A stretch of 33,498 bases of DNA. Origin: a virus (Duplodnaviria > Caudoviricetes). The position numbers and the translations under genes were made by a program. The notes under the pieces are model-generated. The model was not told where the DNA came from. It ran no database searches and saw nothing but the letters and a program-made list of their open reading frames with translations. The stretch covers positions 1 to 33,498 of the IMG/VR virus record IMGVR_UViG_3300017700_000439; one strand, written 5' to 3'. Within the stretch, counting starts at the first letter, position 1. Each line of letters opens with the position of its first letter. Of this stretch, positions 1,488-33,498 are shown one piece after another.

Positions 1488-2746
1488 GCACGACATACAC
1501 GCTGGACGACTTCAACCTCGTCCCGAGCGCCAAGGAGATCGTCTACGGCAACGTCGATCTCGAAGCCCTGCCCTCTGTCGAAGAGGTCCAGAAGCTCGCG
1601 CGCTGGACACCCGACATGCTGGAGCTGTTCAGCAAGGATGCTGACCACTTCGCAGGCGTAGCCGGTGAGAAGCAGGACCGCTCAGCAGCGATGGCGCGGC
1701 TGGCCTACTACGGCGCTGAGATGGGCTGGGACGACCAGCAGATCGCTGCCGTGCTCTACGACGCCGACGACAGGTGGGGCAAGTACAAGGATCGCCGTGA
1801 CCGTGAGAAGCGCCTGCTCGACTTCGTGAACCGGGCGCGCGCCAAGCACGGCTATTCGACAGTGACGGCAGTAGACCTGAGCCGCTTCGCCAAGCGCGAG
1901 TTCGAGGTAGTCGAGCCGGATCAGGCCGCTCGGCCACTAGTGTGGGGCTTCGATGACTTCGTGCAGGCCGACTTCCCGATCAATTGGATGCTGGAGGGGC
2001 TGCTCGCACAGGGCGGCCTCGGCCTCATCACCGGCTTCCCCGGCACGGGCAAGACCCAGTTCGGCATCGCCCTCGGCGCGCATCTCGCGCTCGGGGCTGA
2101 CAAGTTCCTGAAGTGGGATAACGTGTCGGGCCACAAGAAGGTGCTCTTCCTGTCGCTGGAGATGGGTCCGGCCCCGCTCAACCTCTTCATGACGACGATC
2201 TCCAAGGGCTACAGCGACATGCGGACTCTGAACAAGAACCTGCTCGTCGGGCCGTTCGGTGAGCCACTCCCGCTCGACACCAAGGAGGGGCAGGCCTTCC
2301 TCAACAACCTGCTGGACGAGTACATGCCGGACGTGATTATCATCGACTCGCTTCAGGCTGTGATCTCGAAAGAGATGACCGACGAGTTGAGCGTCAAGGC
2401 GTTCTTCCACTACCTGTCGGTTGTGCGCGAGAAGTACCGTTGCGCGATGGTCGTCATCCACCACAACCGCAAGAAGTCGAACGACAACCAGAAGAAGGAG
2501 ATCGAGCAGAGCGATGTCTACGGCTCGACTTACATCGTCGCAGAAGTTGACTTCGTGTTGTCACTTTCCCTGCCCGAGCCGTCGAACACCAGTCTGCTGA
2601 AGGCGACCATGCTCAAGACGCGCCTCGGCAAGCAGATCACTCCGTTCGAGATGTACCGGGATGAGAACCTCGGCTTCTCCATCGACTTCGACAACCTCAT
2701 GCACCAGTTCCCTGTCAAGGAAGGCACGGCACCCCTCGATGTCTAA
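1484..2746 (+). CDS. primase C-terminal helical domain fused to SF4/RepA-like (AAA_25) helicase
   Basis: N-terminal DRSAAMARLA..GAEMGW primase-accessory motif, Walker A GFPGTGKT, LSLEM, Walker B IIIDS, IHHNRK. Confidence 0.85.
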   Translation: MSTTYTLDDFNLVPSAKEIVYGNVDLEALPSVEEVQKLARWTPDMLELFSKDADHFAGVAGEKQDRSAAMARLAYYGAEMGWDDQQIAAVLYDADDRWGKYKDRRDREKRLLDFVNRARAKHGYSTVTAVDLSRFAKREFEVVEPDQAARPLVWGFDDFVQADFPINWMLEGLLAQGGLGLITGFPGTGKTQFGIALGAHLALGADKFLKWDNVSGHKKVLFLSLEMGPAPLNLFMTTISKGYSDMRTLNKNLLVGPFGEPLPLDTKEGQAFLNNLLDEYMPDVIIIDSLQAVISKEMTDELSVKAFFHYLSVVREKYRCAMVVIHHNRKKSNDNQKKEIEQSDVYGSTYIVAEVDFVLSLSLPEPSNTSLLKATMLKTRLGKQITPFEMYRDENLGFSIDFDNLMHQFPVKEGTAPLDV

Positions 2747-2942
2747 CTCTCACCCCGAATACCGTGCGGTGTTCTCGTATCCAGCGAGTTATCTGGGGCC
2801 GATCGAGGACAGCTATGGCCCTCCCCGGCTCTCTGAGAAGGAGACCGAGCAGGATCGCCCGTGGCGGCCTGAAGAGTCGCTGGGATGGCGAAGTGGGACC
2901 CAGACCCGCGAGGTAACCGATTGGGCCGCGACAGATGCCTAA
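2739..2942 (+). CDS. hypothetical protein (67 aa)
   Basis: ATG at 2739 overlaps the helicase end and the stop overlaps the polymerase start, filling the gap exactly. Confidence 0.6.
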   Translation: MSNSHPEYRAVFSYPASYLGPIEDSYGPPRLSEKETEQDRPWRPEESLGWRSGTQTREVTDWAATDA

Positions 2943-4794
2943 GAGCTACCGCGAGGATGAGGGTGTAGCCCTCCTGACGGCCCTGTACGAGCGCCCGGAC
3001 GTGCCGATGGCCGCAGACACCGAGACGACCGGCCTGCGGGTCGCTGACCCCCAAGGAGACCGCTGCATCGGGGTCTCCATCGCCTGCGTCATTGACGACG
3101 TGCCCTACAGCCACTACTTCGCGACAGATCACTCGACAGGGGTCAATGTTTCACGTGAAACGGTCGAGATGCTGGAGTACGTGCTCACCCAGCCCGAGCG
3201 CCTGCTGATCTTCGCCAACGTGCAGTTCGACATCGCCTCCATTGAGACCATCGACGGCACGCGCCTCGATGATACCGACTTCATCGACATCTGCACGATG
3301 GCCCACCTGTGCAACGAGAACCAGCCCCGCAACAAGGGTGTCGAGTCGCTCGCGCAGTGGTATCTAGGCGAAGAGGGCAAGATCAAGGACGACTTCGTGG
3401 AGAAGGAGAAGAAGTCCGGCAACAAGAACATCACCCCCGAGCAGATGTGGGACTACGCCTGCATGGATGCCGTCTCTACGTGGCGCATCTGGTTCCAGCT
3501 ACTCGATCACCCGGTCTGGAAGGCCCTGCCCGAGAACATCTGGCCGGATAAGCAAGAGCTGATCCGCACCCTGCTGGAGATGAAGCGCAGGGGTGTCAAG
3601 ATCGACCAGCGCGTAGCGCGCGAGAACGTCGCTGAGGGCGAGAAGCGGATGAAGGAGCTGGCCAAGGAGCTGGGCTACCCCGCGATCCCCAAGAAGCCGA
3701 CTCGGATGTACCCGAACCCTGACCCGGACCCGCTGCCCGTGCTTGGCCCCATCGCATTGACAGAGATTTTCATCGAGCGACTCGGCCTCCCCGTGCTGAA
3801 GAAATCAGCCAAGACGAACAAGCCCAGCTTCGACAAGACGGTGATGGAGCAGTACGACGAGATGCTGGAGCTGCTCGACAGCAAGGAAGCAGCCCTCGTG
3901 AAGGAGTACAGGGGCTGGCAGAAGGCCGTGAGCGCCGCGTACAGGCCCTATCTGGAGCTGGTTGGGGCTGACGGGCGGCTCCGGTGCTCCTACAAGACGC
4001 ACGGCACCGTCACAGGCCGCCTGAGCTGTTCAGAGCCGAACCTCCAGCAGGTCCCGAAGAGCAGTGACAAGGCGTGGAACGGCAAGGTCAAGGAGTGCTT
4101 CATCGCACGCGAGGGTTACACCCTCATCAACGCTGACTTCAGCCAGCTCGAACTGCGCCTCGGCACGGCCTACGCGGGGGAGGCTGGCCTCAAGCAGGTG
4201 TTTGAGGAAGGCCGCGACATCTTCACGGAGATGAGCAAGCAGCTTGGCATGGAGCGCCACGACACCAAGACGCTGGTCTACTCGATGCAGTACGGCGCGG
4301 GCATCAATCGGATCATGACCGCCTTCGGCGTCACGAAGCCCCGTGCGGACCAGATCAGGAACAATTACTTCAACTCCTACCCCCTCTTCAAGGTGCTGGC
4401 CGACAGGTGCTCGGCGTCCGCTGAGGCCACCGGTAAGGTCAAGCTGTGGACTGGGCGCTACCGTCACTTCCAGTTCGCGAGTGAGAGCTTCAAGGCCATG
4501 AACTCGGTCATTCAAGGCGGGGCCGCCGACATCGTGGAGCGCGTGATGGTGCGCTGCTTCCGCGAGCTGGACAACCCCGACTGCCAGATGCTGCTTCAGG
4601 TCCACGACAGCATCACGTGGGAGGTCAAGAGCGAGCTGGTCGAAGAGTACATCCCCCGCATCAAGGCCCTCATGGAGGACGTGAGCGGCACGGTCAGGCA
4701 CGACGACTTCAACGTGCGGTTCGCTGTGGATGTCGATTTCTGGACCGAGCGAGAAGAGCGCGTCTACAAGGAGTACATGGGGTTGGCAGCATGA
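2935..4794 (+). CDS. polA: family A DNA polymerase with 3'-5' exonuclease
   Basis: ExoI DTETTG, ExoII NVQFD, ExoIII YACMDA; TGRLSCSEPNLQQ; motif A DFSQLELR; motif B KTLVYSMQYG; motif C QVHD. Confidence 0.97.
   Translation: MPKSYREDEGVALLTALYERPDVPMAADTETTGLRVADPQGDRCIGVSIACVIDDVPYSHYFATDHSTGVNVSRETVEMLEYVLTQPERLLIFANVQFDIASIETIDGTRLDDTDFIDICTMAHLCNENQPRNKGVESLAQWYLGEEGKIKDDFVEKEKKSGNKNITPEQMWDYACMDAVSTWRIWFQLLDHPVWKALPENIWPDKQELIRTLLEMKRRGVKIDQRVARENVAEGEKRMKELAKELGYPAIPKKPTRMYPNPDPDPLPVLGPIALTEIFIERLGLPVLKKSAKTNKPSFDKTVMEQYDEMLELLDSKEAALVKEYRGWQKAVSAAYRPYLELVGADGRLRCSYKTHGTVTGRLSCSEPNLQQVPKSSDKAWNGKVKECFIAREGYTLINADFSQLELRLGTAYAGEAGLKQVFEEGRDIFTEMSKQLGMERHDTKTLVYSMQYGAGINRIMTAFGVTKPRADQIRNNYFNSYPLFKVLADRCSASAEATGKVKLWTGRYRHFQFASESFKAMNSVIQGGAADIVERVMVRCFRELDNPDCQMLLQVHDSITWEVKSELVEEYIPRIKALMEDVSGTVRHDDFNVRFAVDVDFWTEREERVYKEYMGLAA
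3147..3162. promoter_or_regulatory. parS-consensus site inside the polymerase gene
   Basis: TGTTTCACGTGAAACG; core GTTTCACGTGAAAC (3148-3161) is the perfect actinobacterial parS palindrome. Confidence 0.7.
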
Positions 4795-5069
4795 GCGCTC
4801 GGGGAACGTCAAACACCAATGTCAGAGGCTCAGCCGCGTCTCGGCGGGCACGCAAGGCGTGGCTGCTGGTCACCTTCGGGGACGGCTACACGGCCCCCTG
4901 CTTCTACTGCGGGGAAGAGCTGGACTGGTTCACGATCACTGTGGATCGCATCGTCGCGGGCATCCTTGGTGGCACATACCGTAGGGGTAACATCCGACCA
5001 GCCTGCATGAGGGACAACTCGGTCGAGGGCAGCAAGCTCCGTGACGAGCTGAGAAGGGCACGAGCATGA
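4791..5069 (+). CDS. HNH-like endonuclease
   Basis: CFYC...TVDRI...GG.Y..GNIRPAC..DN pattern; ATG at 4791 overlaps the polymerase stop. Confidence 0.75.
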   Translation: MSARGTSNTNVRGSAASRRARKAWLLVTFGDGYTAPCFYCGEELDWFTITVDRIVAGILGGTYRRGNIRPACMRDNSVEGSKLRDELRRARA

Positions 5070-5266: not shown

Positions 5267-5691
5267 GCTTCGTTGTCAGCATCGACCCCGGAGACACCTG
5301 CGGAGTGGCTCTGTGGAGTGAGCACGGGCACCTGCACTGGAAGCGCAGCATGTCGCTCGAAGAATTCGAAGTCTGGGCTGACAAAATTGACGTAGAAGTG
5401 TCAGTAGTTGTCTGCGAAAACTACGTCTCTCGTCCCGGCCAGCGGTACGAGAAGAAGGGGTCGAAGATGAAGGCCTCACAGGGTCTCGGCATGGCTAAGC
5501 TTCTCGCTCGCAGGCTCCAGGCCAAGTTCGTGCAGCAGCAACCCGACATCCTCCGCATCACCGCCCTGCACGCCGGGATCAAGGTCCCGCAGAAGGGCCA
5601 CATTGACGACGACGTGAGCGCCTACCTGCACGGTTTCCGATACTTCGTGTCAATCGGCACGCTCAAGCCCGTCTTGCAGCAGGGGAGCTAA
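5263..5691 (+). CDS. RuvC-like Holliday junction resolvase
   Basis: GTG at 5263; SIDPGDTCGVA, VVVCENY and HIDDDVSAYLHG match the RuvC/RNase H-fold catalytic pattern. Confidence 0.8.
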   Translation: MSFVVSIDPGDTCGVALWSEHGHLHWKRSMSLEEFEVWADKIDVEVSVVVCENYVSRPGQRYEKKGSKMKASQGLGMAKLLARRLQAKFVQQQPDILRITALHAGIKVPQKGHIDDDVSAYLHGFRYFVSIGTLKPVLQQGS

Positions 5692-7745: not shown

Positions 7746-10700
7746 TAGAATCCTGCCGCCTCTCCCTCTCGGTTGCGCTTCTCGATCTCAGCGTAGTTGA
7801 TCTGGTTTTGCTGGCTCATGTTCTGGATGCCGAGACCTGTCAGCCAGTTCGTGAAGGCCATCGCAGGACCCCCCACCGGGTCTTTGTTACCCTGCGCGAT
7901 CTGGAACTGCGGGTCGAGTCCCTGCCCCTGAAGCAGCGAGACCAGTGAGCCAGTCACCGAGTTGCCGGTCAGGCGCGAGGCATGCCCGACACCGGGAATC
8001 TGACTGTCAATGTAGTCGCTGGTGTCGTTGATGCGCGCGCCCGTGCCGACCTGCCCCCCTGCGGCCAGCTCGAACGGTGCCCGGATGAAGGGCGATACCG
8101 AACCGAGCACACTGCGGAAGGCCTCATCTCCGAGATACTCGTTGAGAACGTCTACCGAGGCGATGCCGGGGTTGATCGCGTAGTACTTGCCGTCGATCTC
8201 GAATTGGGGGCCTGTGAGCTTGTTCGTCATGTAGCTCGGGAACATCTGGTCCTCGGGGAACGGGTTGGAAAGCGAGTCCGGGTTGACCCCCATCGCGACC
8301 GCGAGGTTGAAGCTCGCCTTCGGGAACGCCATCACGCGAGCAGGCTGGGTGAGCACCGATTCAAGAATGAGCGGGATCGCCTTGCGCTGCCACGAGTAGA
8401 ACGGGATGATGAGCCGGAATGCCTGCTCGCTCTTGGTGAGGTCTGAGCCATCAGGGTGCCACTTCCGCACGCTGTCCGAGGCAGCCGTGAGCAGGTGCTC
8501 CATGTTCTTGTACTTGGGGTCGCTGATGTGCTGTGTCAGGAACTGGATGCCATGTGCAAGGCGCACATAGTGGTCACGGGCTTCCGACACGCCCCCGATG
8601 ACCTGTGCGGCCTTCGTGTGGGTGATCGTGTCCCAGACACTCGTGAGCTTGCCGGTGCCCTGCCCATCCTGCTCGAAGTTCTCCAGCGTGCGGAAGCGGG
8701 GCAGGTTGCCGCGCGAGGCGAACTCGCTGTAGAGCTGGTCGTAGGTGAGCTTGCCATGCCTGCCCTCGATGGCCATCGCCCCGGCTCCGACAGGCTTGGC
8801 TCCCGCGCCCTGAATGGCTGAGATCGCATCCCAGTTCGTGTACCCGTTGCGAGTACCCATCGCGTGCATCGCCTTGAGGTACATATCCTTCGACCCCTTG
8901 GTGCCGAGCGTTAGGAAGGTCAGGCTCATGTCCGAGATCAGGTTGCGGACGTGGTGAGTGGGGTTCGGCAGCGTCATGCCGTACTTCCACATGTCGAGGG
9001 CAGGCTTGTAGACCTCCTTGACCACCTTGCCGAGAGTACCGTCGAGCTTCAGGGTGTCACGCATCAGCGAGTCCACAATAGCGAGCTGCCGGAGAATGCC
9101 GTCCTCGTAGTAGACGTTGGCGGGCATATACTTCGCGAGGATCGACTTACCGCCCTCATCAGTGATGCGCGAGTACCCCGGCTTCGGGACCTTACTTGAC
9201 AGTCGCATGTCAGTAGTGAGCTTCTGGAAAGCCTGTGCGATGGACTGGTCCGCGTTGACCTTGGCGAGACCGGTGTACATCCGATTCAGGAAGTCGGCAG
9301 GGTCCTTGATGTCCCACGTGCGCCACTGCTCAGCAGCTTCCTCCATCACCGTGCGCCCGGAGAGCTTGGCCGCCTCGGCTGCCTTGTCCGCGTCGAAGAG
9401 GTAGTCGCCGTTCTTGAAGTAGAACTCGATGACTGCATTGGCGTGGTGGATTGAGGCGTTGCTACGGAAGAAGGAATTGTCGATCAGGGCCGAGCGTCCC
9501 GTACCCCCGAAGATTTGACCAGCGATGTCAGCGAGGTCCGCTGCTGCCCCCGCCACAACAGGATCGGGGCTGAGTACACCCTTCTGGATCGACTGGAAGG
9601 CGAGAGCCAGTTCCTCCTGCGTGTGCTTGGCACTGAGGACGTTGAGCTTGTCCGTGCTCGTGGCCACAATGTCGCGGAACCAGTTTTCCGAGCGCACGAG
9701 ATCGCGATGGATCGCCACGTTGCCTGCCGTGCGCGAGAACACCGGAGCCAGCTTGGCCAATGCCCCCGTACCGATGAGCTGCTGGATGCGTTCACCGAAG
9801 TCCATCGTCTGGTCAGCGGCCTCCGTGAAGGTCTCCACGTTCAGGTCATCGAAGAGACGCTGATCGGCCTCGACACCAGCCCGCTGTACGTCATCGAGCA
9901 CCATCATGGGGTTCTTGGACTTGCTGGTCTTAGCCGTGGAGATCGCCGCCTTCGACGCCTTCACAGCAGCCGTCGCGATGAGCTTGTCAGCAGCAGGGAT
10001 TAGGGCCTCCGTCGCGGTACCCGCCATGTTGGTCGCCGTCTGGGTAGTGCCCCGCTCCGTCGCGAGCTTCTGCACGCGGGTCGAAGTGTCAGCCAGCTCT
10101 TCGAGGATGGAACCGTAGCCCTGTCGATTCGCAAACACGTCCTCCAGATGCTTGAGCTGGTTGTCGGTCATCTCGTAGGTCTCGGCCACGCGACGGGCAC
10201 CCAGCGACTGGGCGTTGTTCTCGACCACGTGCCTGAGTACGGGGGTCGCCTTCTCAATGAGGTCGGTCAGCCCGCGCACGAGCATCTCGCCGTCGATCTT
10301 CTCTCGACCAATAGTGCCGCCGAGCTTGTTGGTGATCGGCTTGACGAGGTTGTTCTCCATCGGCTTGAGCTTGCCCTCGCTTGACAGGTGCCGGGTCTCG
10401 GCCTGCCGGAGCATGGCCTCGATCTGCGTGCGGTCGCCCCCCTTGATGGCCGCAAACACGGCATCAAGCAGGTTGGTCGGGGGCACCGCTGTCGAGTAGT
10501 TCCAGAAGTAGGCCTGCATCCCCTTACGGTCGAGGTCATCGAGCACGTCGAGCACCTGCGACATTCCGAGAGGCACGCGATCCGGGCCGACACCGACAGT
10601 GAGGGGCACACCGTTCTCGTCGTACCAGCGCTCAGCGAGTCGGAGGGCCTGCTTCACATTGGTCCGTACTGCCTCGGCGCTCGCCCGCGCGTAAGTTACG

Positions 10701-12565
10701 CCCTGAGCCTTGGCCAGCTCACGGGCAGGGCTGAACATATCCTTGATGACGTTCCACTGGAAGTAGGTGTTGGCCTCGCGCATGTACCGGCCCCAGCCAT
10801 CGCCGTACAGCTCGTCGGTGCGGAGCGCGCCTGACTTCGACTGGAAGGGATAGCGCTCGGGCATCTTAGGCGTGACGATGTTGGCGTCGATGCCGCGCCG
10901 GATGCCGCTCTCGGCCATCTTCACGATGGGGTCGGTGGCGTCGTCGCCCATCTTGGCCACCAGCTCCGCGATGTTGTTGGCGGGGGCCTCCATATTGGGG
11001 ACGCCCTGCCACTTCCGCACGGAGAGCGGTACAGCCGCAGGGTCCATCCCGATCTCGCGCAGCATCTTCTCGGTGGGGGAGCTGAGTCGGCTCAGCGCGC
11101 TCACGTCGAGGGACTGATCGAGGATGCCGCGCATCTCTGACACTACGTTGTCAAAGTTGTTCGGATTCGTCATCTTCCGCAGGGCCTCGACAAGGGGCTT
11201 GCCCATCGACTGCACGAGAGCGCCCTCGTTCTCGGCCACCTGCCGCTTGAAGTTGCCGAGGCTGTTGAGTACGGTCTCCATGACCTCGGCCTTGGGCTTC
11301 TTCGGGGTGACTACTCGACCGAGCGCGTCAATGAGCTTGCCCTGCTGCTTCGCCTTAGCGAAGGCTGGGAGGTAGACGCTCTGGTGGAACTGCTGGAGGA
11401 CCCGGAGTGCTCCTGCGTTGCCCTTCTCGGCTTCGAGCAGCACGACAGGCAGCGGTGTGCGCTTGCCCGCGATGGTCAGCGCCGGGGCGTCCGACAGCTT
11501 CTCCAGCCTCTGCACGGCCTCAGTGACCTCAGCCACCCAGCCTGCCGATCCGACGACTCCCGAAGCCAATTCCGGGTTCGGGCCGAAGGTCAGGGGCTTG
11601 GCCGCCATCGGATCAGCCACCGAGCGCACGGCAGTCTTGAGCGTCATCGGGGTCAGGCCTTCGAGCGCGCCCTTCAGCGACTGGGCCTTGGGATTAGTGA
11701 GGACCTGACGCCGGATGTCGCGCTTGGCCACGTCAGCCGTGCGCTGGGCGACCATCGCCTCGAAGGTGGCATCGTCCATCGTGTCGAGCTGCTTGGCGTA
11801 GTCAGCGGCAAATGTGTCAGCAGCGTCCTTCTCCACGCGCAGGGCTGCCGCTTCCGTAGCCGAGGCCTTCGTGGGTGCCTTGATCTTGGCAGTCTCCTTG
11901 AGCAGGTCGTCCACAACGCTCTCGGCCTTCTGTCCAGCCTTGGCTCCCTGCACAATGGTCTCTGCGCCCGCGCGCACCCCCTCCGTGAGCAGCTTGCCAC
12001 CCTTGACGAGCTTCTTGCCTGCGCTGAGGATCATCCCACCGGGCACGTAGGTCAACGGGTCGGCTCCGACATCACCTACGAAACCTGCCACACCCTTGAG
12101 GAGGGGGTTCACGTTGTCCTGTACGTCCACGTAGTTGTCGGGGTCTATGAGTGCGCCCGCCGTGTCAGTGCCTTGTTCGATCAGGTCGCTCGTGTAGTGC
12201 TTGTCCTTCGTGTCCGTCGAGAACACACCACGGATCGGGGCAGCGAGCTGATCGACCGCCCCACCGAGTACGTCACCAATGCCCCCAAGCACATCACCGC
12301 TGTCGAACTTCTCACGGATGGCCGGACCCTTAGCAGCCTGATTGAAGCTTGCCGATACCATGTTCGTTACCCCGAAGAGGGGCCGCGAGATGATGTCCGT
12401 CAGCCAGCTCAGTGCATCCTGCGGCTCGTTGCTCTTCGTGGAGGCTCCACCAAAGTTGCTGAGCTGAGGGAGACCAGCGGAGGGGACGCTGGGAGTTGTG
12501 TAAGGACCCCCAGTGCCTCCTGTCGCTGAGTAGTAGTCGGAGAACGACTTAGGCTTGTCGGCCAC
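7745..12565 (-). CDS. large internal virion / DNA ejection protein (~1,606 aa)
   Basis: GTG at 12565 with AGGAGG RBS; Ala-rich helical; PTHHVRNL.SD and PFYSW.RK..P motifs recalled from podovirus core proteins; position after the nozzle gene. Confidence 0.65.
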   Translation of the reverse strand: MADKPKSFSDYYSATGGTGGPYTTPSVPSAGLPQLSNFGGASTKSNEPQDALSWLTDIISRPLFGVTNMVSASFNQAAKGPAIREKFDSGDVLGGIGDVLGGAVDQLAAPIRGVFSTDTKDKHYTSDLIEQGTDTAGALIDPDNYVDVQDNVNPLLKGVAGFVGDVGADPLTYVPGGMILSAGKKLVKGGKLLTEGVRAGAETIVQGAKAGQKAESVVDDLLKETAKIKAPTKASATEAAALRVEKDAADTFAADYAKQLDTMDDATFEAMVAQRTADVAKRDIRRQVLTNPKAQSLKGALEGLTPMTLKTAVRSVADPMAAKPLTFGPNPELASGVVGSAGWVAEVTEAVQRLEKLSDAPALTIAGKRTPLPVVLLEAEKGNAGALRVLQQFHQSVYLPAFAKAKQQGKLIDALGRVVTPKKPKAEVMETVLNSLGNFKRQVAENEGALVQSMGKPLVEALRKMTNPNNFDNVVSEMRGILDQSLDVSALSRLSSPTEKMLREIGMDPAAVPLSVRKWQGVPNMEAPANNIAELVAKMGDDATDPIVKMAESGIRRGIDANIVTPKMPERYPFQSKSGALRTDELYGDGWGRYMREANTYFQWNVIKDMFSPARELAKAQGVTYARASAEAVRTNVKQALRLAERWYDENGVPLTVGVGPDRVPLGMSQVLDVLDDLDRKGMQAYFWNYSTAVPPTNLLDAVFAAIKGGDRTQIEAMLRQAETRHLSSEGKLKPMENNLVKPITNKLGGTIGREKIDGEMLVRGLTDLIEKATPVLRHVVENNAQSLGARRVAETYEMTDNQLKHLEDVFANRQGYGSILEELADTSTRVQKLATERGTTQTATNMAGTATEALIPAADKLIATAAVKASKAAISTAKTSKSKNPMMVLDDVQRAGVEADQRLFDDLNVETFTEAADQTMDFGERIQQLIGTGALAKLAPVFSRTAGNVAIHRDLVRSENWFRDIVATSTDKLNVLSAKHTQEELALAFQSIQKGVLSPDPVVAGAAADLADIAGQIFGGTGRSALIDNSFFRSNASIHHANAVIEFYFKNGDYLFDADKAAEAAKLSGRTVMEEAAEQWRTWDIKDPADFLNRMYTGLAKVNADQSIAQAFQKLTTDMRLSSKVPKPGYSRITDEGGKSILAKYMPANVYYEDGILRQLAIVDSLMRDTLKLDGTLGKVVKEVYKPALDMWKYGMTLPNPTHHVRNLISDMSLTFLTLGTKGSKDMYLKAMHAMGTRNGYTNWDAISAIQGAGAKPVGAGAMAIEGRHGKLTYDQLYSEFASRGNLPRFRTLENFEQDGQGTGKLTSVWDTITHTKAAQVIGGVSEARDHYVRLAHGIQFLTQHISDPKYKNMEHLLTAASDSVRKWHPDGSDLTKSEQAFRLIIPFYSWQRKAIPLILESVLTQPARVMAFPKASFNLAVAMGVNPDSLSNPFPEDQMFPSYMTNKLTGPQFEIDGKYYAINPGIASVDVLNEYLGDEAFRSVLGSVSPFIRAPFELAAGGQVGTGARINDTSDYIDSQIPGVGHASRLTGNSVTGSLVSLLQGQGLDPQFQIAQGNKDPVGGPAMAFTNWLTGLGIQNMSQQNQINYAEIEKRNREGEAAGF

Positions 12566-13746: not shown

Positions 13747-13757
13747 GTGTCAACTCC

Positions 13758-16214: not shown

Positions 16215-16227
16215 TGACAGCTCCTAG

Positions 16228-16872
16228 TCAAAAATCGTAAACCGTGATGGTCGAGTAGGTCATGTTCTGAGCGGTACGCTCTTCCTCGGCCATCTCACCG
16301 ATGTTGGCGTCAAGCTGCTGGGCCTTAGCCTGCGAGGCGTTCCAATCCTCGTCCATCTCGTAGGCCTGCTGGAGCACGTACTGGACGATGGCCTGAAAGT
16401 ACTTGTCAGGCAGGGGGATAACATCGGTCGTCGCTACCACGGGCACCGGGCGCTGCGTGAAGTACAGCGTGATGTTCTCGACAGTGGCGGGCTTAGGCCA
16501 GAAGCTGAACTTGCCTCCCCACTCATACCAGAGGTAGGGCACGCCCTGATCGTTGATCTGGCTGGCCGTGTTGATGATCTCTTCCTCGGCCTGCGCGAAG
16601 GGCATGTTGGGCAGACGTGATCCGGCGTAGTGCAAAGACTCGATCTGGAGGATGCGGTCGCTCGGGAAGGTGTAGTCCTGCTGGCCTGCAACAGAGACCG
16701 TCGTGCTCGTGGCCTTCAGCACCTTGTTGCGCCGGTTGATCTCGTCGGCAGCATCGTTGATCCACCGGATGATGTCAGCCGTTTCGAGCTGCACGCCGGA
16801 CTCGTCACCGAACTGCCGGGTCACCGACTGAAGGACCTCCTGCACGGTCCTCACCGAGGGGCTGTACGCCAT
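16228..16872 (-). CDS. head-tail adaptor (tail tubular A-like)
   Basis: IIRWINDAA.EI, GQQDYTFP, WPKP, LPDKYFQAIVQY motifs. Confidence 0.75.
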   Translation of the reverse strand: MAYSPSVRTVQEVLQSVTRQFGDESGVQLETADIIRWINDAADEINRRNKVLKATSTTVSVAGQQDYTFPSDRILQIESLHYAGSRLPNMPFAQAEEEIINTASQINDQGVPYLWYEWGGKFSFWPKPATVENITLYFTQRPVPVVATTDVIPLPDKYFQAIVQYVLQQAYEMDEDWNASQAKAQQLDANIGEMAEEERTAQNMTYSTITVYDF

Positions 16873-17791: not shown

Positions 17792-17823
17792 TTTGACTCC
17801 TTATTGTCAATAAAAGGCTATGG

Positions 17824-20003: not shown

Positions 20004-20016
20004 TTCTTCTCCTTGT

Positions 20017-20077
20017 GCTGTACCGTCTCCGGCCCTAGCTACGTCTTGTGCGGCTGTACCGGGAGTCCGGCCCTAGC
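20017..20077 (-). promoter_or_regulatory. tandem RNA stem-loop motif in the scaffold 5' leader
   Basis: Two copies of GCTAGGGCCG(G)-loop-(C)CGGTACAGC at 20077-20053 and 20039-20017, directly before the RBS. Confidence 0.65.
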
Positions 20078-20089: not shown

Positions 20090-20117
20090 ATGATACTGCC
20101 TGACGGCAGAGTGTCAA
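20090..20117 (-). promoter_or_regulatory. sigma-A/70-type promoter for scaffold-capsid genes
   Basis: TTGACA (20117-20112), 16-nt spacer, TATCAT (20095-20090). Confidence 0.65.
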
Positions 20118-20364: not shown

Positions 20365-22563
20365 CTATCCTTCCATCACAGGAGCCGGAACCGCCCCGTT
20401 GTCGGCCATCGTAGCACCGGGTCCTTCGACAGGGGCCTCTTCCGCGCCACCCGTTGTCACGTCCAGCTCGGGACCGCCTGCGGCAGGGCCGCCATCCGAT
20501 CCGTCGCTCGGGATCATGTCGAGGAACTGCATCATCTTCGCCTGCTGGAGAAGCCGGGTGTGCTCGGCCACGTGCAGCTCGAACTGCTCCTTGTGCTCGG
20601 GCGAGAGCGACTCGTACTCCTGCCCCATGCGGAACTTGTTGTGCGTGTCGATGTGGACCTCGTGAACGTCGAAGTCATCGACAGGAATCATCGGCGGCAT
20701 CTCGGGCATACCCTCGGCCTGCCACTGGGCGGCCAGCTCAGGGTTGGCCTGCGCTGCCTCTATGACCTGCTGCTCGAAGAGCTGCTGAGCCTGAGCGAAC
20801 ATCTCGGGCTTGAGCATCTTCATCTTGGTGTTCTCGCGCATCGCCTTGCGCTCGGCCACGTTCATCAGGTCGAGGACCTTCTGCGCGCCGCCGACCTCCA
20901 GCAGCTTGAGTGCCATCGGCTGGTCGATCAGGCCGATGGAGAACATGTCCATGACCTTGGCCTCCTTGGCGGCCTGCGACTGGCCGACAGCGGTGCCCTT
21001 CTGGATGCGGATGTCGGTGCCGTTCTTGATGTCGGCACCCTTGAGCAGCACCGTGTCGAAGCTCTGGTCAGTGCCGATGGTCTTGATCTTCCGGGGGAGA
21101 TCGACGTACTGCACGAAGAGCTGGAGGCTCTGGCTGGCGAGTCGCTCGTAGCCGTCCTCGATGGACTCGTACTGGGGCGACAGGAAGCTGTCGTCCTTCT
21201 CCTGAAGGTAGTTGATGGCCGTGCCTGCGGTGACGCCTGCGGGGGCCTGTCCCTTCGAGACCTCGTGCTGCCCGGTGAGGTCCTCCCAGTCCGACAGAAT
21301 CCGGTCCTGCTGGTCGATGTAGTACTGGGGCAGGGGTGTGAGCGCCATCGGGGTCGGGGGCGAGTAGCCCACCTTGTACTCGATGACGAGACCCGGCTCG
21401 TTGGTGAGCTTTGAGGGCACGATGCTGCCGCGCTGGGCAAGGAGCTGGGGCTTGGCCATGCGGCGGCCCGCCTCGCTGATCTCGCTGCGAAGCTGGTTGT
21501 ACTCGCGCTGGAGCTGGTTCGTGTCCACCAGCGGCGAGTCGGCGTAGAAGGTGCTCGTCGGGATGTGCTCGAACTTCGTGTAGGGATACTGGTCGTGGGC
21601 ATAGGGCAGGCCGTCCCGGTACATGCCCACGAGCTTGTCGTCCACCACGATGATGACCCCGCCCTCGGGCAGGTACTTCGTCGCTCCCGGCTTGCACCAG
21701 CACTCGTAGACCACTACGGAGTCCGGGGTGCGGCTGCCGGAGGACAGGTTCAGGTAGCCCTCTTCGAGGATGCTGTTCGAGCTGGAACTTGACGGCTGAA
21801 TGTCAGTTCCGTTCAGGGCCTCCGCGAAGAACTGGCGGCACCATTCGACAGACTTCGTGTAGGCGTTGATGACGAAGGGCTGGTCCTCGATCTCCTGCTC
21901 GCGCAGGTCGGGGACGAAGAGATGGAAGGGCGTGATCGAGCCGAAGCGCACGTTGCCCTTGTCGCCGGTCTCCTTGTCCACGATGGTCGAGGTATCCCAC
22001 CACGTCTTGAGGAAGCCGTTGCCGGTGATGATCGTCCACCACGCCGCCTTGCGGAAGTGGGTGCGGAGCTTCTGCATGTCGGAGATCGACTGCCACGCCT
22101 GCTCGGCGGCATAGGCCGCGCGCACGTCCTCATCCTCGGCGGTGGCCGGGACAGCGACAGCCTGCGGGATGCTGGCAAGGAACTTGGCGTGCTCGGCGCG
22201 CACGAAGGACCGCGTGCGGTTGATCGTCTTGCGCTGGTGGTAATACGGCTTCTTGGGCGTGGTGAGCTTGTCACGGAATCCCTCGGGCGAAGTCGTCCGC
22301 ATCCGCTCGGCGTACTGGTTGCCGTAGAACATCGACATGTTCTGGAACCACTGGAGCTGCTTGGTCTGGCGAGCCTGCTTGCTGCGCTCGTACTCGCCCT
22401 TCATCCACGCTACGAGCGCCTCGGCGTCCTTGGTCTTGCGGTACTTGTCGAGGTCGAACTTCTCAACGGGAGCCGGAAGCTCGGTCGGGATCGGGGATGT
22501 CGAAGAACTCTCCGTCGAGACCGGCGTCTGCGATGTCTGCGAGGAACGTGCTCTCGAAGCCAT
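20365..22563 (-). CDS. portal protein (P22-like size)
   Basis: 732 aa downstream of the terminase; IN.....V, G.GFLK..WD, QREYN..RS.I.E, TAGTAI..LQE, D.HEVHI..H motifs. Confidence 0.9.
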   Translation of the reverse strand: MASRARSSQTSQTPVSTESSSTSPIPTELPAPVEKFDLDKYRKTKDAEALVAWMKGEYERSKQARQTKQLQWFQNMSMFYGNQYAERMRTTSPEGFRDKLTTPKKPYYHQRKTINRTRSFVRAEHAKFLASIPQAVAVPATAEDEDVRAAYAAEQAWQSISDMQKLRTHFRKAAWWTIITGNGFLKTWWDTSTIVDKETGDKGNVRFGSITPFHLFVPDLREQEIEDQPFVINAYTKSVEWCRQFFAEALNGTDIQPSSSSSNSILEEGYLNLSSGSRTPDSVVVYECWCKPGATKYLPEGGVIIVVDDKLVGMYRDGLPYAHDQYPYTKFEHIPTSTFYADSPLVDTNQLQREYNQLRSEISEAGRRMAKPQLLAQRGSIVPSKLTNEPGLVIEYKVGYSPPTPMALTPLPQYYIDQQDRILSDWEDLTGQHEVSKGQAPAGVTAGTAINYLQEKDDSFLSPQYESIEDGYERLASQSLQLFVQYVDLPRKIKTIGTDQSFDTVLLKGADIKNGTDIRIQKGTAVGQSQAAKEAKVMDMFSIGLIDQPMALKLLEVGGAQKVLDLMNVAERKAMRENTKMKMLKPEMFAQAQQLFEQQVIEAAQANPELAAQWQAEGMPEMPPMIPVDDFDVHEVHIDTHNKFRMGQEYESLSPEHKEQFELHVAEHTRLLQQAKMMQFLDMIPSDGSDGGPAAGGPELDVTTGGAEEAPVEGPGATMADNGAVPAPVMEG

Positions 22564-23186: not shown

Positions 23187-24807
23187 CGTAGGCTCCTTCG
23201 TAAAGTTCTTCATCGGAGTAGGTAGTCTCCCACTCCGTTGCATCCTCATTTGACATCTCATCGTCAACAAATGTCACATTGTCGTCGTTTGAGAGTCTCG
23301 CCATCATGTCTTGATACGAGAGCGTGACCGGAACTCTATCACTGGCCGGGGCCGGAACGGGAGAAAGGTCCGGCATCAGGGTCGCGAAGTACTTGGCCGA
23401 GTCGAATGCGTGGTCGTCCTTCTTGTGGATTTCCTCGCGCTTGTTCGTGTCGTAGGCCAGCTTCTCAGACGAATACGTGGCCCACCGGAGCTTCTTCAGC
23501 TCCTTGATGAGGTTGACACAGTTCGACAGGATGACCCACTTCGGGCGGTATGGACCCCAGCCGCTGCCCTCTGCGAGGACCTCGAAGTACTGGCGCATCT
23601 TCTCGACACCGATCATGGCGTCATGGGGGATGCCATCGACTTGGATGTGGATGCCAAGCAGCGCATACTCGGTGAGGACGCTGGTGCCGGTGTTCATCTG
23701 CCGCTGCTTGCCAGCGGGGTCGCCAACACGGATGTCCGGTGCGTCGTAGTCTCGACCGCTGAGCCGCCCGAAACCGACCTCCATCTCTTTCACGATAGAG
23801 GCGTGCTGGGGCACGTTCATGTCGGACTGGTAGTGCTCCGCGAAGGTCACGATGTCGCCTCGGGGGCTGACTGCGTGCCAGAGCCACGCCGTGGGGTTGT
23901 TGATGCCGAAGTCGGCAGAGCTGTACCACTCCCACTTCCTGATCGAGCGCATGTCGAACTGGTCGTAGTCCATCACGTGGGTATCGGTGTTGAAGTTCGG
24001 GAACACAAGACCCGAGCGCGCGACGAACGACCCCTTCTCGCGCATCGCCCGCTCCTGCACATCCATGCCCTGCATGTAGAAGTCGCGGTCCTCTTCGTCA
24101 GCCTGAACGTAAGGGTTGTCCTCCATCGAGAGCGTGAAGCAGGCCACGTCCCCATCGGGGTTCTCCTGTGCAGGCTCCCAGAGCAGATCGTAGGTCCAAC
24201 CCATGCCCTTGACTGGCGTGGCCGAGATGACCCAGAAGCCGTTGTAGTCGATGAGGCGCATCATCGACTCGTTGAAGATATGACGGGGCGGCTCTTCATC
24301 GAAATAGATGATGTGCCGGGGCACACCACCGAGCTTCGACAGCTCCATGCCGTGCGTCACGAAGTCGATGGTCGAGCCGTTGGAGAACGTGAGGATCAGG
24401 TTCTTCGCGTCCCAGCTCTTGTCCCAACGACCATCCACGAGCATTGACTTCGACAGCCAGCGCTGGAACTTGGGGAGCATGATCTGCTCGACACCCTTGG
24501 CCACGTCCACGACGACGAACCGCTGGCTGATCGGGCCGCTGCCCCACGCCTCGGGGCGCTGGAGGTAGCGGTGCGTATTGGTGGCCCACCAGATCGACTC
24601 GACCACGATGGAGTCGGTCTTACCGCCTCGGTTGCCTCCCGACACAAAGCGGCCCCGCTTGGGGCTGCGGTGAAAGCGATCCTGCTCGGCATAGTACTTC
24701 TCGCCGTAGTTCAGGATGTTCGGCTGGTTGAGGCTCCGCTCAAGGGCGTCCGTGACGAGGCTGAAAAGGTCCTCGACCGGGATGTGCGGTGCCTTGGCTG
24801 GAGTCAT
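23179..24807 (-). CDS. terL: terminase large subunit
   Basis: Q..FH, Walker A GGNRGGKT, Walker B IYFDEE, SATP coupling motif, nuclease ADFG..NPTA, DPAG, DDHAFDS.KY. Confidence 0.95.
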   Translation of the reverse strand: MTPAKAPHIPVEDLFSLVTDALERSLNQPNILNYGEKYYAEQDRFHRSPKRGRFVSGGNRGGKTDSIVVESIWWATNTHRYLQRPEAWGSGPISQRFVVVDVAKGVEQIMLPKFQRWLSKSMLVDGRWDKSWDAKNLILTFSNGSTIDFVTHGMELSKLGGVPRHIIYFDEEPPRHIFNESMMRLIDYNGFWVISATPVKGMGWTYDLLWEPAQENPDGDVACFTLSMEDNPYVQADEEDRDFYMQGMDVQERAMREKGSFVARSGLVFPNFNTDTHVMDYDQFDMRSIRKWEWYSSADFGINNPTAWLWHAVSPRGDIVTFAEHYQSDMNVPQHASIVKEMEVGFGRLSGRDYDAPDIRVGDPAGKQRQMNTGTSVLTEYALLGIHIQVDGIPHDAMIGVEKMRQYFEVLAEGSGWGPYRPKWVILSNCVNLIKELKKLRWATYSSEKLAYDTNKREEIHKKDDHAFDSAKYFATLMPDLSPVPAPASDRVPVTLSYQDMMARLSNDDNVTFVDDEMSNEDATEWETTYSDEELYEGAYDG

Positions 24808-24816
24808 GACGCCATC

Positions 24817-25122
24817 CTACGGAGTGGACTGGTCCTTCGCACCAAGACGGACGAGGGCACCAATGATCGAGGGGAGCGACGTGTTGCCACCCCGGCTGCC
24901 GGTAATGGTGACGCCGGTCAGCAGCAGCTCGGAGTCGCCACCGTCATGGCGGTGGTTGCCGGGAGCTGCCTGACTCGGACCGGGGCCCAGCGTGTGGTGC
25001 TGGGCCTCCGATCGCGAGTCGAGGTCGGAGTTCTGGTGGAACGCGTCAACCTCATCAGCAGTCGGGTTCGGCTTGTCCTGCTCAACGTTCCGCTCGGACT
25101 CCCCGTACTGCTTGACTGCCAT
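24817..25122 (-). CDS. small protein, possibly structural
   Basis: 101 aa; HHTLG....QAAPGNHRH resembles His motifs of fibre proteins. Confidence 0.65.
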   Translation of the reverse strand: MAVKQYGESERNVEQDKPNPTADEVDAFHQNSDLDSRSEAQHHTLGPGPSQAAPGNHRHDGGDSELLLTGVTITGSRGGNTSLPSIIGALVRLGAKDQSTP

Positions 25123-25132
25123 GTGTCAAACC

Positions 25133-27268: not shown

Positions 27269-27991
27269 CTACCTCTCCAGTTCAGGGGGCCGATGTGTCA
27301 AAGCAAACCCTACTACCTGTGCCTCCACACCTGAAAGAATAGCGCGCCGTTCCTCGGGGTCCTTCACGTGCATGACGACTAGCTCCATGACCGCCGCGAT
27401 GACGCCCTTCGCATCTTCGAGCTGCTGCTGTGCCGGATTCCAGCGACCCGTAATCTCCAACACCTTCTCGATGGCACGCATGTCCCCCGCCTCAGCGTTA
27501 CCGACGAGCTTACCGAGCACCATCGGGATGGCCTGCTTGAGGTTGGCCTCCTGTCGCGCCCGGTAGCTCTCCATGAAGAGCGGGTGTCCCAGCCACGCCT
27601 GATACCGCGCCATCGGGATGCCGAGGTCACGCATCTTGACAGCGGTCGTGCGCCTGTCGGTAGGGTCGGTGAGTGCAAGCAGCGCCATCGACTGCTCCAT
27701 TGACAATCCAGTGTCATCACTCCATGAGACGCCTCGATAGGCGAGAGCCTCCTTGAACTCATTGGTCAGAAACAGGGCCGAGTAGGTCTTGACGGGGATG
27801 TTCGGCCAGAAGCGATGTACCTCCGTGATGGAGGGCAACTTGCCGAGCGTGCGGTAGGCAGTGTCGAACGCGGCGACAGCGTTGCGAAAGGCGTGGTCGG
27901 TGAATCCCTGCGGAGTCTGCACCCGCTGGAACCGGCCATCCTTCTCCTTGACCCGGATGCCCCCCTCGACCTGCTCGAAGTTGTCAGCCAC
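27269..27991 (-). CDS. HTH protein, probable terminase small subunit
   Basis: HTH-like segment ending Y.AWL.HP.F, then L...AEAGDMRAIE...E.TGRW.P, typical of small-terminase-like proteins. Confidence 0.55.
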   Translation of the reverse strand: MADNFEQVEGGIRVKEKDGRFQRVQTPQGFTDHAFRNAVAAFDTAYRTLGKLPSITEVHRFWPNIPVKTYSALFLTNEFKEALAYRGVSWSDDTGLSMEQSMALLALTDPTDRRTTAVKMRDLGIPMARYQAWLGHPLFMESYRARQEANLKQAIPMVLGKLVGNAEAGDMRAIEKVLEITGRWNPAQQQLEDAKGVIAAVMELVVMHVKDPEERRAILSGVEAQVVGFALTHRPPELER

Positions 27992-28043
27992 GGAAGTAGC
28001 CCCAGCAGGCGGCTGCCACGATGAAGATCAGCATGACAATCAT
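27984..28043 (-). CDS. 19-aa hydrophobic micropeptide
   Basis: MIVMLIFIVAAACWGYFRG; ATG overlaps the upstream TGA and the stop overlaps the downstream start. Confidence 0.5.
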   Translation of the reverse strand: MIVMLIFIVAAACWGYFRG

Positions 28044-28555
28044 CGGTGGTCCACCCAGTCGGTCTGCATCTCCTTCAGCTCCGACAGGTAGCCGTACTGG
28101 ACTTCGGTGAGGGCTGCCTCGATGACCTTGGGCATGGTACGGGTCGTGCCGTCCGCGTAGCGCATGACGGTGGCGCTCGGGACCTTCAGCATCTTGCAGA
28201 ACTTCTGCCGAGACCCGGCCACATCGAGGATGAGCAGGTCGAAGGGCGACTCCTTGATGGCTCGCCGGGGGCTGACCCGGAAGAGGTAGGCGATCTGGAT
28301 GCGCTCGCCAGACTGCCACGAATGGTAGGCATCTTGAAGAGTCTCAGCGTTGTACTCATCCTTCAGCACCTGCTTGGCGTTGACGCCCTTCTCGGCGCAC
28401 GCCTTCCCAAGACTGACGATCATCTCGTCCGAGAGGTCTGCAAACTGCCCCGACTCGATGTGGGTCATCGTGGTCTTGGCGAAGCCAAATGTGGCTGCAA
28501 AGTCCTTTTGACTGTACGCTGTCAATTCGCGCAACCTGCGGTATGGATTCTCCAT
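28040..28555 (-). CDS. XRE/Cro-type DNA-binding protein with two HTH-like units
   Basis: LRE....SQKDFA...G.AKTT...IESG and SRQKFCKMLKVPSATVMRY..G. Confidence 0.75.
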   Translation of the reverse strand: MENPYRRLRELTAYSQKDFAATFGFAKTTMTHIESGQFADLSDEMIVSLGKACAEKGVNAKQVLKDEYNAETLQDAYHSWQSGERIQIAYLFRVSPRRAIKESPFDLLILDVAGSRQKFCKMLKVPSATVMRYADGTTRTMPKVIEAALTEVQYGYLSELKEMQTDWVDHR

Positions 28556-29940: not shown

Positions 29941-30908
29941 GGCACCTTCGTCAGAGCGGTCGGCTTGAGCCACATCATGAACTGGCCGTTGCTGACCAGA
30001 ATGCTATCGCCCTCATCGTCCTCGCGCGTGGGGTCTATGGTCATGATCTCGCCCGAGACGAAGCCGTTGAGCTTGGCCGTCTCATCAAGGATCACCACCT
30101 TGTCGCCGCGCCGGAAGCTGATGCCGTCCTGTCGAAGCATCTCGTCGGCTCCATTCGGAAACAGGTCCTTGAACTTGCCGACGATCACCGTCCCCACGTC
30201 CTCGGACATGGACCTTGACATCACAGTGTCAAACAAGTCCTTCATCCCCGGCATGTCGCGAGTCAGTGCCTCATTCACGATCTCGCAACACTCATGCTGC
30301 TTCGCAGCCACGGCTTCCTCGAAGCTCACGATGAGGCTCTGGATCAGCACGTCCTTGTCGAGAGGCTTGGCATCTGGCGTTGGCGGCTCAGTAACGGGAG
30401 GGCTGGACTGCCCCGCTGGCATGTACCAGTTCGTCGTCTCGACACCCTGATTCAGGTACGACAGTGCTGCCTCGGCGGCTTCGGGATCACCCCCGGTGAC
30501 CTTGAGTGCCCAACGCCGATCATTCTCGGTGCCGAGCTTCCTGTCGAGTCGTTCCTTGAGCCTACGGTTGTAGTCGATCTGGAGCTGTACCTGCTCCTGA
30601 GTCGTCCCGAGCGTACGCGAGGTCAGCGTGTAGCTCTCTCGCACATCGGCAAGATCGCGCCGAAGCCGAGTGATCTCGTCCATCGGGTTGCCCGCCTTCT
30701 CCAGACTGAGCGTGAGCACGTTGTCGAAACGCTCGCCGCCATGCCAGTAGCCACTGACGAGCTGCTGCTCACCGTTCATGCGGGTAGCGGTGACGATCCC
30801 GAGGCGCACCCAATTCTCATCACGCTCGCGAACGGTATCGCCCACGCTGAGCTTCTGATCCTCGGTCATAGGCATGTCGGGCTGGTAGTTGATGTTGCCC
30901 TCAGTCAA
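29937..30908 (-). CDS. multi-domain hypothetical protein
   Basis: TTG at 30908 with GAGGAAGG RBS; SH3-like ends (LSVGDTVR, FRRGDKVV) and a central coiled coil. Confidence 0.7.
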   Translation of the reverse strand: MTEGNINYQPDMPMTEDQKLSVGDTVRERDENWVRLGIVTATRMNGEQQLVSGYWHGGERFDNVLTLSLEKAGNPMDEITRLRRDLADVRESYTLTSRTLGTTQEQVQLQIDYNRRLKERLDRKLGTENDRRWALKVTGGDPEAAEAALSYLNQGVETTNWYMPAGQSSPPVTEPPTPDAKPLDKDVLIQSLIVSFEEAVAAKQHECCEIVNEALTRDMPGMKDLFDTVMSRSMSEDVGTVIVGKFKDLFPNGADEMLRQDGISFRRGDKVVILDETAKLNGFVSGEIMTIDPTREDDEGDSILVSNGQFMMWLKPTALTKVP

Positions 30909-31751: not shown

Positions 31752-31798
31752 GTGGTTTCCAATCTGTGTTGTTGAGTTAGCTTACTTGCTACTGACTC

Positions 31799-32192: not shown

Positions 32193-32350
32193 TTAGCGCG
32201 CGATAGTTAGCTTACCGGGGCTTTTCGTCGGATGCAACTCACACCCCAGTATGGAATCAAGTGGACGAATCAGGCGTACAACATCGTTTTGACAAGCTTA
32301 TGTCAATCCCAACCGGGACATCGAGCAAGGCAAACAGAAAGAAGTACGTC

Positions 32351-33103: not shown

Positions 33104-33118
33104 CAAAGGAGGGCACAG

Positions 33119-33164
33119 GCCCCCGTCCATTTCCTCACCCGAGGGGGAGTGGCCGGGGGTTTTC
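33119..33164 (+). terminator. intrinsic terminator
   Basis: GCCCCCG pairs with CGGGGGT, inner pairing present, followed by TTT. Confidence 0.65.
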
Positions 33165-33498
33165 CCGTTCCGGCATGGAATCAAGTGGACTAACTCACTC
33201 CTGCTGACATTTCAGTGTCAATCGTGGTATCAGGTGAGGTTGGGATCGAGTGGACTAACTGCCTGCCGAGCTGGCTTATGGTACTGGGAAATTTCACGAC
33301 TTGAACCGGTGAGTTGTGGGGCTTGAGCACCATGCACTGTGAGTAGCTCACTGGCCCTAGTAGTCATCCTTGTGGCCCGCTCGTGGCGCTGCCCCCGGAA
33401 GGCCCGCAGGGGCCGAGAGGGGGTAGCAGCGCCACAGGGCCACAAGTACAGAGTCTCTCTCCCCTGTACGCGTCCTTGACGTGACGCTACAGGGGAGA

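Follow-up and report, generated by a model that had tools for sequence, protein, structure and literature searches.

A genome-wide array of spaced palindromes in an actinobacterial podophage and its association with a SprT-like metalloprotease gene

Introduction

One of the closest described counterparts of the element analyzed here is found in the Cluster O mycobacteriophages, which carry 34 copies of 17-bp symmetric repeats genome-wide, about one third of them intragenic, and whose function the available part of the source leaves unexplained (PMC4351075). Our subject is an array of the spaced palindrome TGAC-N8-GTCA in IMG/VR virus record IMGVR_UViG_3300017700_000439 (Caudoviricetes), of which the whole stretch of 33,498 nucleotides was analyzed (hereafter the window). 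Both systems consist of dyad-symmetric sites laid across an apparently lytic actinobacterial phage, with a dimeric binder proposed (PMC4351075), and the same broad pattern (dyad symmetry, more than 30 copies, partly intragenic placement, a lytic phage) is found again in the phages analyzed here. The Cluster O repeats are, as far as that part of the source goes, built 7-3-7 with invariant arms, mostly fixed in position among close relatives and not assigned to an identified binder (PMC4351075), whereas the array in the window is 6-6-6, mostly intragenic, turning over, and linked to a gene across phages and plasmids. A likeness also exists with the stoperators of Cluster A, 20–30 sites for one phage protein that are mostly promoter-distant (PMC6550527, available part); number and location are comparable here, with 17 sites in 33.5 kb, 25 in a complete relative, and a −10 match at promoter distance for only 8 of 148 half-sites. 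Stoperators are, however, asymmetric, 13–14 bp long, oriented with transcription and bound by the monomeric immunity repressor of temperate phages (PMC6550527, same part), whereas the window sites are palindromic and their candidate reader carries a protease motif rather than a helix-turn-helix (HTH). The 18-bp inverted repeats of Microbacterium cluster EG (PMC7302621) and the repressor-bound 12-bp operators of phage BPs (PMC4557955) are, in the portions of these sources available, symmetric but few (4–10 copies) and intergenic.

We report that the palindrome is associated, in this phage family and in unrelated phages and plasmids, with a gene for a SprT-like protein bearing the HExxH zinc-protease motif. 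ImmA/IrrE are HExxH-type peptidases that cleave a repressor; they are not, to our knowledge, operator-binding proteins. SPRTN and Wss1 combine a SprT-type HExxH motif with DNA binding; they are eukaryotic and remove DNA–protein crosslinks, with no mention of sequence specificity in the available part of the source (PMC5127644), whereas the protein considered here belongs to prokaryotic mobile elements and co-varies with a defined palindrome. The putative zinc metallopeptidase MpR is encoded by an HExxH-type gene on a plasmid, near stability or regulatory modules; it is given no function in the part of the source available (PMC7414963), and is likened to our protein by motif and setting only. 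Searches of the open literature, supplements aside, yielded no link of the motif or of operator binding to a SprT-like protein. An earlier mention of the repeats of phage phiAsp2 (see below) is possible; no precedent was found for a DNA-reading role of the SprT-like family.

Results

The Palindrome Array in the Window

The palindrome array is real and strongly selected. A first-pass annotation, made from the letters of the window, had listed 17 sites between 2547 and 33221, its site number being the base that precedes TGAC. All of them are present, and as a list of exact matches it is complete; a single near-match, with a broken core, lies at 12566. Dinucleotide shuffles of the window contained a mean of 0.70 sites (maximum 3, n = 100). 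Two checks proposed in that annotation gave the outcome it anticipated: every spacer from 0 to 20 except 8 yields 0–4 sites, against 17 at N8, and codon-preserving shuffles retain 0.4 intragenic sites (maximum 2, n = 200), against 11 within called genes. Because the site at 32290 falls in an over-long gene call whose true start is probably 32351, the intragenic total is better taken as 10, the other seven sites being intergenic or overlapping a start or ribosome-binding site. Among all 4+4 spaced palindromes in the window, TGAC-N8-GTCA ranks first (17 vs. 0.87 expected). It also holds that each site has at least one TGACA half and that the gaps are of 0.8–3.8 kb (808–3809 bases). The 49 sites of three genomes give the consensus TTGACA-N6-TGTCAA, and 58 of their 98 half-sites match it perfectly.

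The sites are spaced more evenly than under random placement, with a coefficient of variation (CV) of 0.44 in the window (P = 0.00025), and of 0.61 (P = 0.004) and 0.43 (P = 0.025) in two relatives, G001 and G002. Taking gene structure into account leaves this evenness in place (P = 0.007 and 0.02), the value of 0.007 being obtained for the window with its six noncoding sites fixed and the rest redrawn among the 31 synonymously possible places.

The SprT-like Gene Tracks the Motif within the Family

At 33.5 kb, the window covers part of the genome of an actinobacterial podophage of the Jasminevirus/Shocker type, with Microbacterium phage Shocker (58% for the capsid, 50% for the terminase), Cellulosimicrobium phage DS1, and Arthrobacter Jasminevirus among its kin. 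Comparison with G001, a complete relative of 43,372 bases, shows that it lacks about 10 kb of its early arm. The array recurs in four uncultured relatives: G001 (25 sites), G002 (7 in 22 kb), G007 (6 in 43.5 kb), and the assembly G012 (19 in 35.5 kb, over three phage contigs). No site occurs in four cultured relatives, nor in G003, G006, G009, and G010, and G013 has no TTGAC-N8-GTCAA. The conservation among relatives that had been proposed as a check is thus found for the array as such and, for the most part, not for its layout, most intragenic positions having changed between genomes. A polymerase plus helicase tree unites the motif-bearing genomes (support 0.948); structural genes place G007 elsewhere.

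The SprT-like HExxH gene of G001 (39227–39841) lies within the stretch missing from the window. The early-arm region that carries it is absent from the window, G002, and G003; a homolog is present in all three motif-bearing relatives that hold this region (G001, G007, and a phage contig of G012), and none was found in motif-poor relatives, ten of which are near-complete. In the gene set of G001, only this gene and a 64-amino-acid gene (G001 3280) track the motif in this manner.

The SprT-like Gene Predicts the Motif in Unrelated Phages and Plasmids

Searches with the SprT-like protein returned at least 2228 homologs at E ≤ 1e−20, and matches in 7 phage and 53 plasmid records, 10 of which were examined, picked by rank and variety. 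Among the first five, Actinoplanes phage phiAsp2 carries 36 sites and four plasmids carry 2, 2, 7, and 4 (reversed control, 0); the GenBank features of phiAsp2 list no repeats over 8639–58638. Of the second five, an Amycolatopsis plasmid has five sites, and three records whose homologs are about 30% identical, with different loops (see below), have none. The neighbors of the SprT-like gene differ among the plasmids and phiAsp2, and a ParA gene lies near it in two plasmids.

A profile scan of viral contigs found 96 relatives, 80 of which were kept. After leaving out G001, G007, and nine duplicates, 69 loci (0.98 Mb) remained that had been picked by the SprT-like gene only. They contain 349 sites with the N8 spacer, against 13–44 at the other spacers from 4 to 12; enrichment at P < 0.01 holds for 36 of the 69, and in 33 the interval between −400 and +60 relative to the SprT-like gene start contains a site. 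In 42 control loci, taken from the podophage family outside the motif clade and picked without the SprT-like gene, there are 10 sites, vs. 5–14 at other spacers.

Zinc Site, Loop, and Predicted Dimer of the SprT-like Protein

The homologs are 200–240 amino acids long. H101, E102, H105, and H123 are invariant among 40 of them, H123 being a putative third zinc ligand, and HExxH is intact in 79 of the 80 parsed. A precomputed PF10263 match exists for many homologs, and the Atlas clusters found at 0.97 carry PF10263 on 12–35% of members. No solved structure matches the SprT-like alignment by sequence. The protein is predicted to form a homodimer, its model scoring 0.83, vs. 0.00 for the best of three controls. 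The scoring mark is attained by 20 of 30 pairs of solved structure and by 1 of 23 solved chains that are single; agreement between runs covers 94% or more of the contacts, and pLDDT is 85 or higher.

A loop located between HExxH and a conserved HN, beside the zinc site, sorts the loci according to the motif. Enrichment is found in 30 of the 36 loci with an SRQGR loop (272 sites vs. 16.5 expected), in all five with SRQNR (35 of 41 for SRQ[G/N]R together), and in the single SRSGR locus, with a relaxed core. None of nine SRGGR loci and none of 18 loci with other loops are enriched; in seven of the nine, a palindrome of the same geometry lies within 100 bases upstream of the gene and shares the central core, the adenine position being free, and one of the other two shows no palindrome there. 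Glutamine reading adenine is a common protein–DNA contact.

Several loci of the TDVNG group have a shorter palindrome upstream of the SprT-like gene. In a distant SprT-like subfamily (L253, L256, L262, L264, L266, L269, and L273), a shorter palindrome upstream of the gene suggests further specificity groups.

Positions of the Sites and Their Turnover

The sites of the window and associated features are as follows (strand given where assigned).

2547..2564: site 1, within helicase gene 1484–2746; G001 has the same seven residues and no site, with synonymous changes only
5387..5404: site 2, within the resolvase-like gene ending at 5691; G001 too has a site in that gene
9196..9213: site 3, within the 1606-amino-acid core-protein gene; none at that codon in G001 and G002
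11137..11154: site 4, within the same core-protein gene; same codon in G001 and G002
13736..13753: site 5, over the start codon of gene 12580–13746
16214..16231: site 6, across the ribosome-binding site of gene 14667–16214
17793..17810: site 7, 3′ of the major capsid gene and covering the ribosome-binding site that follows; G001 has it in the same place
20090..20117, minus strand: sigma-70-type promoter match (11/12, spacer 16, consensus match only) upstream of the scaffold and capsid genes
20100..20117: site 8, over the −35 hexamer and spacer of that promoter; position shared by G001, G002, and L163, with a degenerate copy in G007
21789..21806: site 9, within the portal gene; the portal site of G001 and G002 lies elsewhere
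23250..23267: site 10, at the 3′ end of the terminase gene; codon shared with G001 and G002
25112..25129: site 11, over the start codon of gene 24817–25122
27700..27717: site 12, within gene 27269–27991 (weak small-terminase match); none at that codon in G001
28040..28555, minus strand: tandem XRE-HTH protein, a reader proposed in the first-pass annotation
28508..28525: site 13, at the tenth codon of the tandem XRE-HTH gene; position shared by G001, L064, and L163, absent from L065
29356..29373: site 14, within gene 29156–29482
30215..30232: site 15, within gene 29937–30917
32289..32306: site 16, 5′ of gene 32351–33103, the first of the early arm; G001 has it in the same place
33204..33221: site 17, past the 3′ end of that first early-arm gene; the corresponding interval of G001 also contains a site
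33498, plus strand: contig end, beyond which about 10 kb of early arm are missing

G001 shares the codon of three intragenic window sites, those in the core protein, at the terminase end, and in the HTH gene; the remaining ones are lineage-specific. The intragenic share is 20 of 25 sites in G001 and 6 of 7 in G002. For site 9, a 92%-alike contig shows one listed change inside the 18-mer, in the spacer, which is too little to count. Intragenic sites had been said to use codons atypical of their genes, and they do use rare codons, TCA making up 7–9% of serine codons; the commonest reading frame is xxT GAC nnn nnn nTG TCA. Synonymous opportunities for a site are used at 11 of 31 places in the window, 20 of 59 in G001, and 3 of 27 in G008, and at none of the 20–39 available in each of seven motif-poor genomes. 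These patterns point to selection for possessing sites and not for most of their positions. The D-x-x-[LVMA]-S peptide occurs 2.3–2.7 times per 1000 residues in the window and G001, vs. 0.6–1.2 in motif-poor relatives.

Over 74 sites (148 half-sites, also the basis of the −10 count above), the two halves do not co-vary (44 vs. 45.1 and 50 vs. 51.2 pairs at two variable positions) and spacer self-complementarity is under chance (44 vs. 59.6 pairs, sd 6.6). These figures speak for a dimer on double-stranded DNA rather than for a hairpin. A promoter-array reading was dropped for most sites, given the scarcity of −10 matches.

Other Candidate Readers

The first-pass annotation had taken the sites for those of a dimeric protein that coats the genome, and had named two HTH proteins as possible binders. 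The view of a genome-spread dimeric binder of double-stranded DNA is sustained because the spacer is strict, the halves do not co-vary, spacer pairing is under chance, and the array recurs in four relatives. The named HTH proteins (28040–28555 and 27269–27991) fare otherwise: both occur family-wide, including an aquatic sister clade whose HTH homolog loci have 0–2 sites each, and neither tracks the motif. The gene that we favor could not be noticed at that stage because it would sit in the stretch that the window lacks. Of the functions then suggested, stoperator-type silencing lacks support, no integrase being found among the family matches of the window, itself a fragment, or in annotated relatives, and no HTH match in the genome contigs searched; a host-factor decoy is not supported either, with at most two perfect sites in any of the 301 Actinomycetota genomes searched, a sample outside which the true host may fall.

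The tandem XRE-HTH protein gave a confident model (pLDDT 97) with an XRE fold, its best structural match being ImmR (Z 7.6, rmsd 2.1 over 61 residues), with no Foldseek match at E ≤ 0.001. It was rejected as the reader given its family-wide occurrence and the lack of an equivalent palindrome in pooled aquatic-clade sequence (305 kb), and its gene is probably a target of the array rather than the source of its reader. The first early protein (32351–33103) tracked the motif until remote homologs appeared in motif-poor G008 and G013; its model is of low confidence, with no fold match and no informative Atlas match. A winged-HTH protein (G001 40086) occurs family-wide. The splitting of primase and helicase, tried as a correlate of the motif, is found in motif-poor relatives too.

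Other Repeats and Features

Other repeats were observed in the family. Shocker (L001) and G003 have an asymmetric array, CTGTAAAG, with 45 and 31 copies genome-wide, at about one per kb, on both strands and with many copies within genes. It shows no enrichment across the 121 actinomycete genomes searched (a set that includes the unpublished G343, G347, and G354, on none of which singly a claim rests). A CTGTCGG-type octamer is over-represented family-wide on both strands (29 copies vs. 2.8 expected in G001, with variants in Jasmine and DS1) and is possibly a primase recognition site. A palindrome of like geometry in G006 (four copies) does not recur in its clade and was set aside. A 45-kb relative (L162; capsid 50% identical, GC content 43%) is a stand-alone contig within a Streptomyces assembly and may represent a carrier state or contamination.

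In the window, the scaffold-gene leader (about 20010–20075, minus strand) contains two copies of a short hairpin-like repeat, kept in G001, G002, and L163 and single in G007; it may serve as an RNA operator in autoregulation of the scaffold. A 15-base GGAATCAARTGGAC-type repeat at 32252, 33176, and 33241, independent of the palindrome, marks the early or terminal region family-wide, including the terminal repeat of Shocker. GTAARCTAAC repeats at 31785, 31814, and 32215 overlap a leftward promoter (31827–31799) and number six in G001; with ACGCTA repeats upstream of the HTH gene in the aquatic clade, they are candidates for the tandem HTH protein's own operator. An inverted repeat at 33460–33498, which stops exactly at the contig end and recurs near 37700 in G001, is a possible genome end or origin. 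At 460–2746, a primase domain (190 amino acids) and a helicase (420 amino acids) are encoded separately, on either side of an unrelated gene; in Shocker and G003 a single gene encodes both. ARAGORN makes a short tRNA-Met call at 366–433.

Discussion

Our preferred reading, to which we give a rough probability of 0.45 (a figure that also covers milder versions, such as a single host target), is that the palindromes are bound by the phage SprT-like HExxH zinc metalloprotease and that the array tethers this protease along the DNA. The gene would belong to the 10 kb that the sequence of this phage lacks, and the homodimer would read the two halves of TTGACA-N6-TGTCAA, the loop glutamine contacting the adenine; bound at its gene start, the protein would repress its own expression. 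This recognition and autorepression by the predicted dimer itself we hold to be quite probable. Given such binding, the chances are about even that the site was multiplied in phages, to one per 1–2.5 kb, so that active protease would coat the whole genome and cut host proteins loading on phage DNA, such as silencers, defense, or repair proteins; promoter-covering sites would also set transcription. A tethered protease is favored because 79 of 80 homologs retain the catalytic motif, because phage sites are mostly promoter-distant, and because coverage stays even while positions drift, a combination of turnover and even spacing that suits coverage more than the control of particular promoters.

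A number of observations weigh against this reading. The presence of the SprT-like gene in this phage and in G002 is deduced from relatives, its stretch being missing from the window. G008 has three exact sites and no SprT-like gene, and G007 has the gene with just six sites and a 20-kb gap between exact ones; the plasmids with the gene carry two to seven sites, and dense coverage is therefore not required. The Natronoglycomyces plasmid has two sites vs. three in its control, one of the two sites lying a short way 5′ of the gene; a pair of related Microbacterium plasmids carries two sites apiece, none beside the gene. The 36 enriched loci reduce to 11 DNA-similarity groups, with 20 and 7 loci in two large ones, and one locus (L229) may be phiAsp2 itself. 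Six of the 36 SRQGR loci lack enrichment, the SRGGR locus L203 retains a canonical site, and the Fisher P of 5e−8 for the loop association is overstated because loop and motif share ancestry. The PF10263 matches of the protein (E-values 3.8e−05 and 9e−05; 23.9 and 22.7 bits) are below the curated cut-off of 25.6. Finally, ordinary regulation would account equally well for the several conserved sites that sit on promoters or starts.

Indeed, the SprT-like dimer might bind the sites as a global transcription regulator or roadblock only, the zinc site serving self-cleavage, induction, or structure rather than attack on other proteins, with plasmid KorB or the stoperators as a model. The site at the gene start in nearly half of the viral loci, the site on the capsid promoter in four genomes, those over three starts and further ribosome-binding sites in the window, and the low numbers on plasmids all fit this account; most phage sites are, however, deep in genes and change position, few half-sites have a −10 match, and the catalytic motif is almost always kept, so that we consider it possible, if somewhat doubtful. 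The dimer could instead organize, compact, segregate, or help internalize the genome, as MatP does at matS and ParB at parS. Even spacing in three genomes, the predicted dimer, the ParA gene close to two plasmid homologs, and the Lsr2-like protein encoded in the terminal repeat of the related phage Jasmine (PMC5513430, available part) speak for such a role; it appears unlikely in view of the large gaps in G007, the ten relatives that manage without the gene, and the conserved catalytic residues, which a structural role leaves unexplained.

We find it similarly unlikely that something else binds the sites (the tandem XRE-HTH protein, a linked small gene product, or a host regulator), with the SprT-like gene as merely one target. 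Four genomes do have a site at the tenth codon of the HTH gene, the recognition helices predicted for its product are not the same in motif-bearing as in motif-poor clades, and the 64-amino-acid gene tracks the motif as well; two such sites lie upstream of an actinobacterial MarR gene (L180), and the perfect 12-base site is present in 23 of the 301 chromosomes vs. 4 for the control. Against this stand the family-wide occurrence of the HTH, the varying neighbors of the SprT-like gene among plasmids and phiAsp2, the change of the motif with the SprT loop residue, and the ceiling of two perfect sites per chromosome. The same palindrome was seen in the promoters of MarR (L180) and MerR-like (L181) genes of actinobacteria; host regulators may therefore cross-recognize it. 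Single-strand hairpins, acting as priming signals for an AEP-type primase or as RNA operators over translation starts, are a very improbable explanation: the mean folding energy of the 18-mers is −2.6 kcal/mol, several sites cover starts, and their spacing resembles Okazaki-fragment length, but the halves lack co-variation, spacer pairing is under chance with a fixed loop length, the split primase occurs in motif-poor relatives as well, and phiAsp2 and the plasmids share the motif.

The preferred reading, that of a protease tethered by the array, extends tentatively to the family as a whole: the widespread SprT-like metalloproteases of phages and plasmids might be sequence-specific readers that dock as dimers on dozens of palindromes written by the element into its own genes and destroy host proteins loading on DNA marked in this way, forming a protease shield anchored on self DNA, with one loop residue setting specificity. 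Symmetric repeat arrays in actinobacterial phages have been reported, in the parts of the accounts available, without a binder (PMC4351075, PMC7302621), and here such an array is tied, by prediction across unrelated phages and plasmids, to a gene whose family is one of proteases and not a known DNA-reading one. A role is thereby proposed for a gene that is frequent in actinobacterial mobile elements and labeled “hypothetical” or “SprT-like”, and the cultured phage phiAsp2, with its 36 sites, makes the proposal directly testable. These phages appear to rewrite their own codons, and probably their own proteins too, to gain sites. If binding is direct, the SprT-like proteins would constitute a new class of sequence-specific DNA-binding protein with a testable recognition rule, and if the protease acts from its sites, they would represent a new anti-defense or anti-silencing principle.

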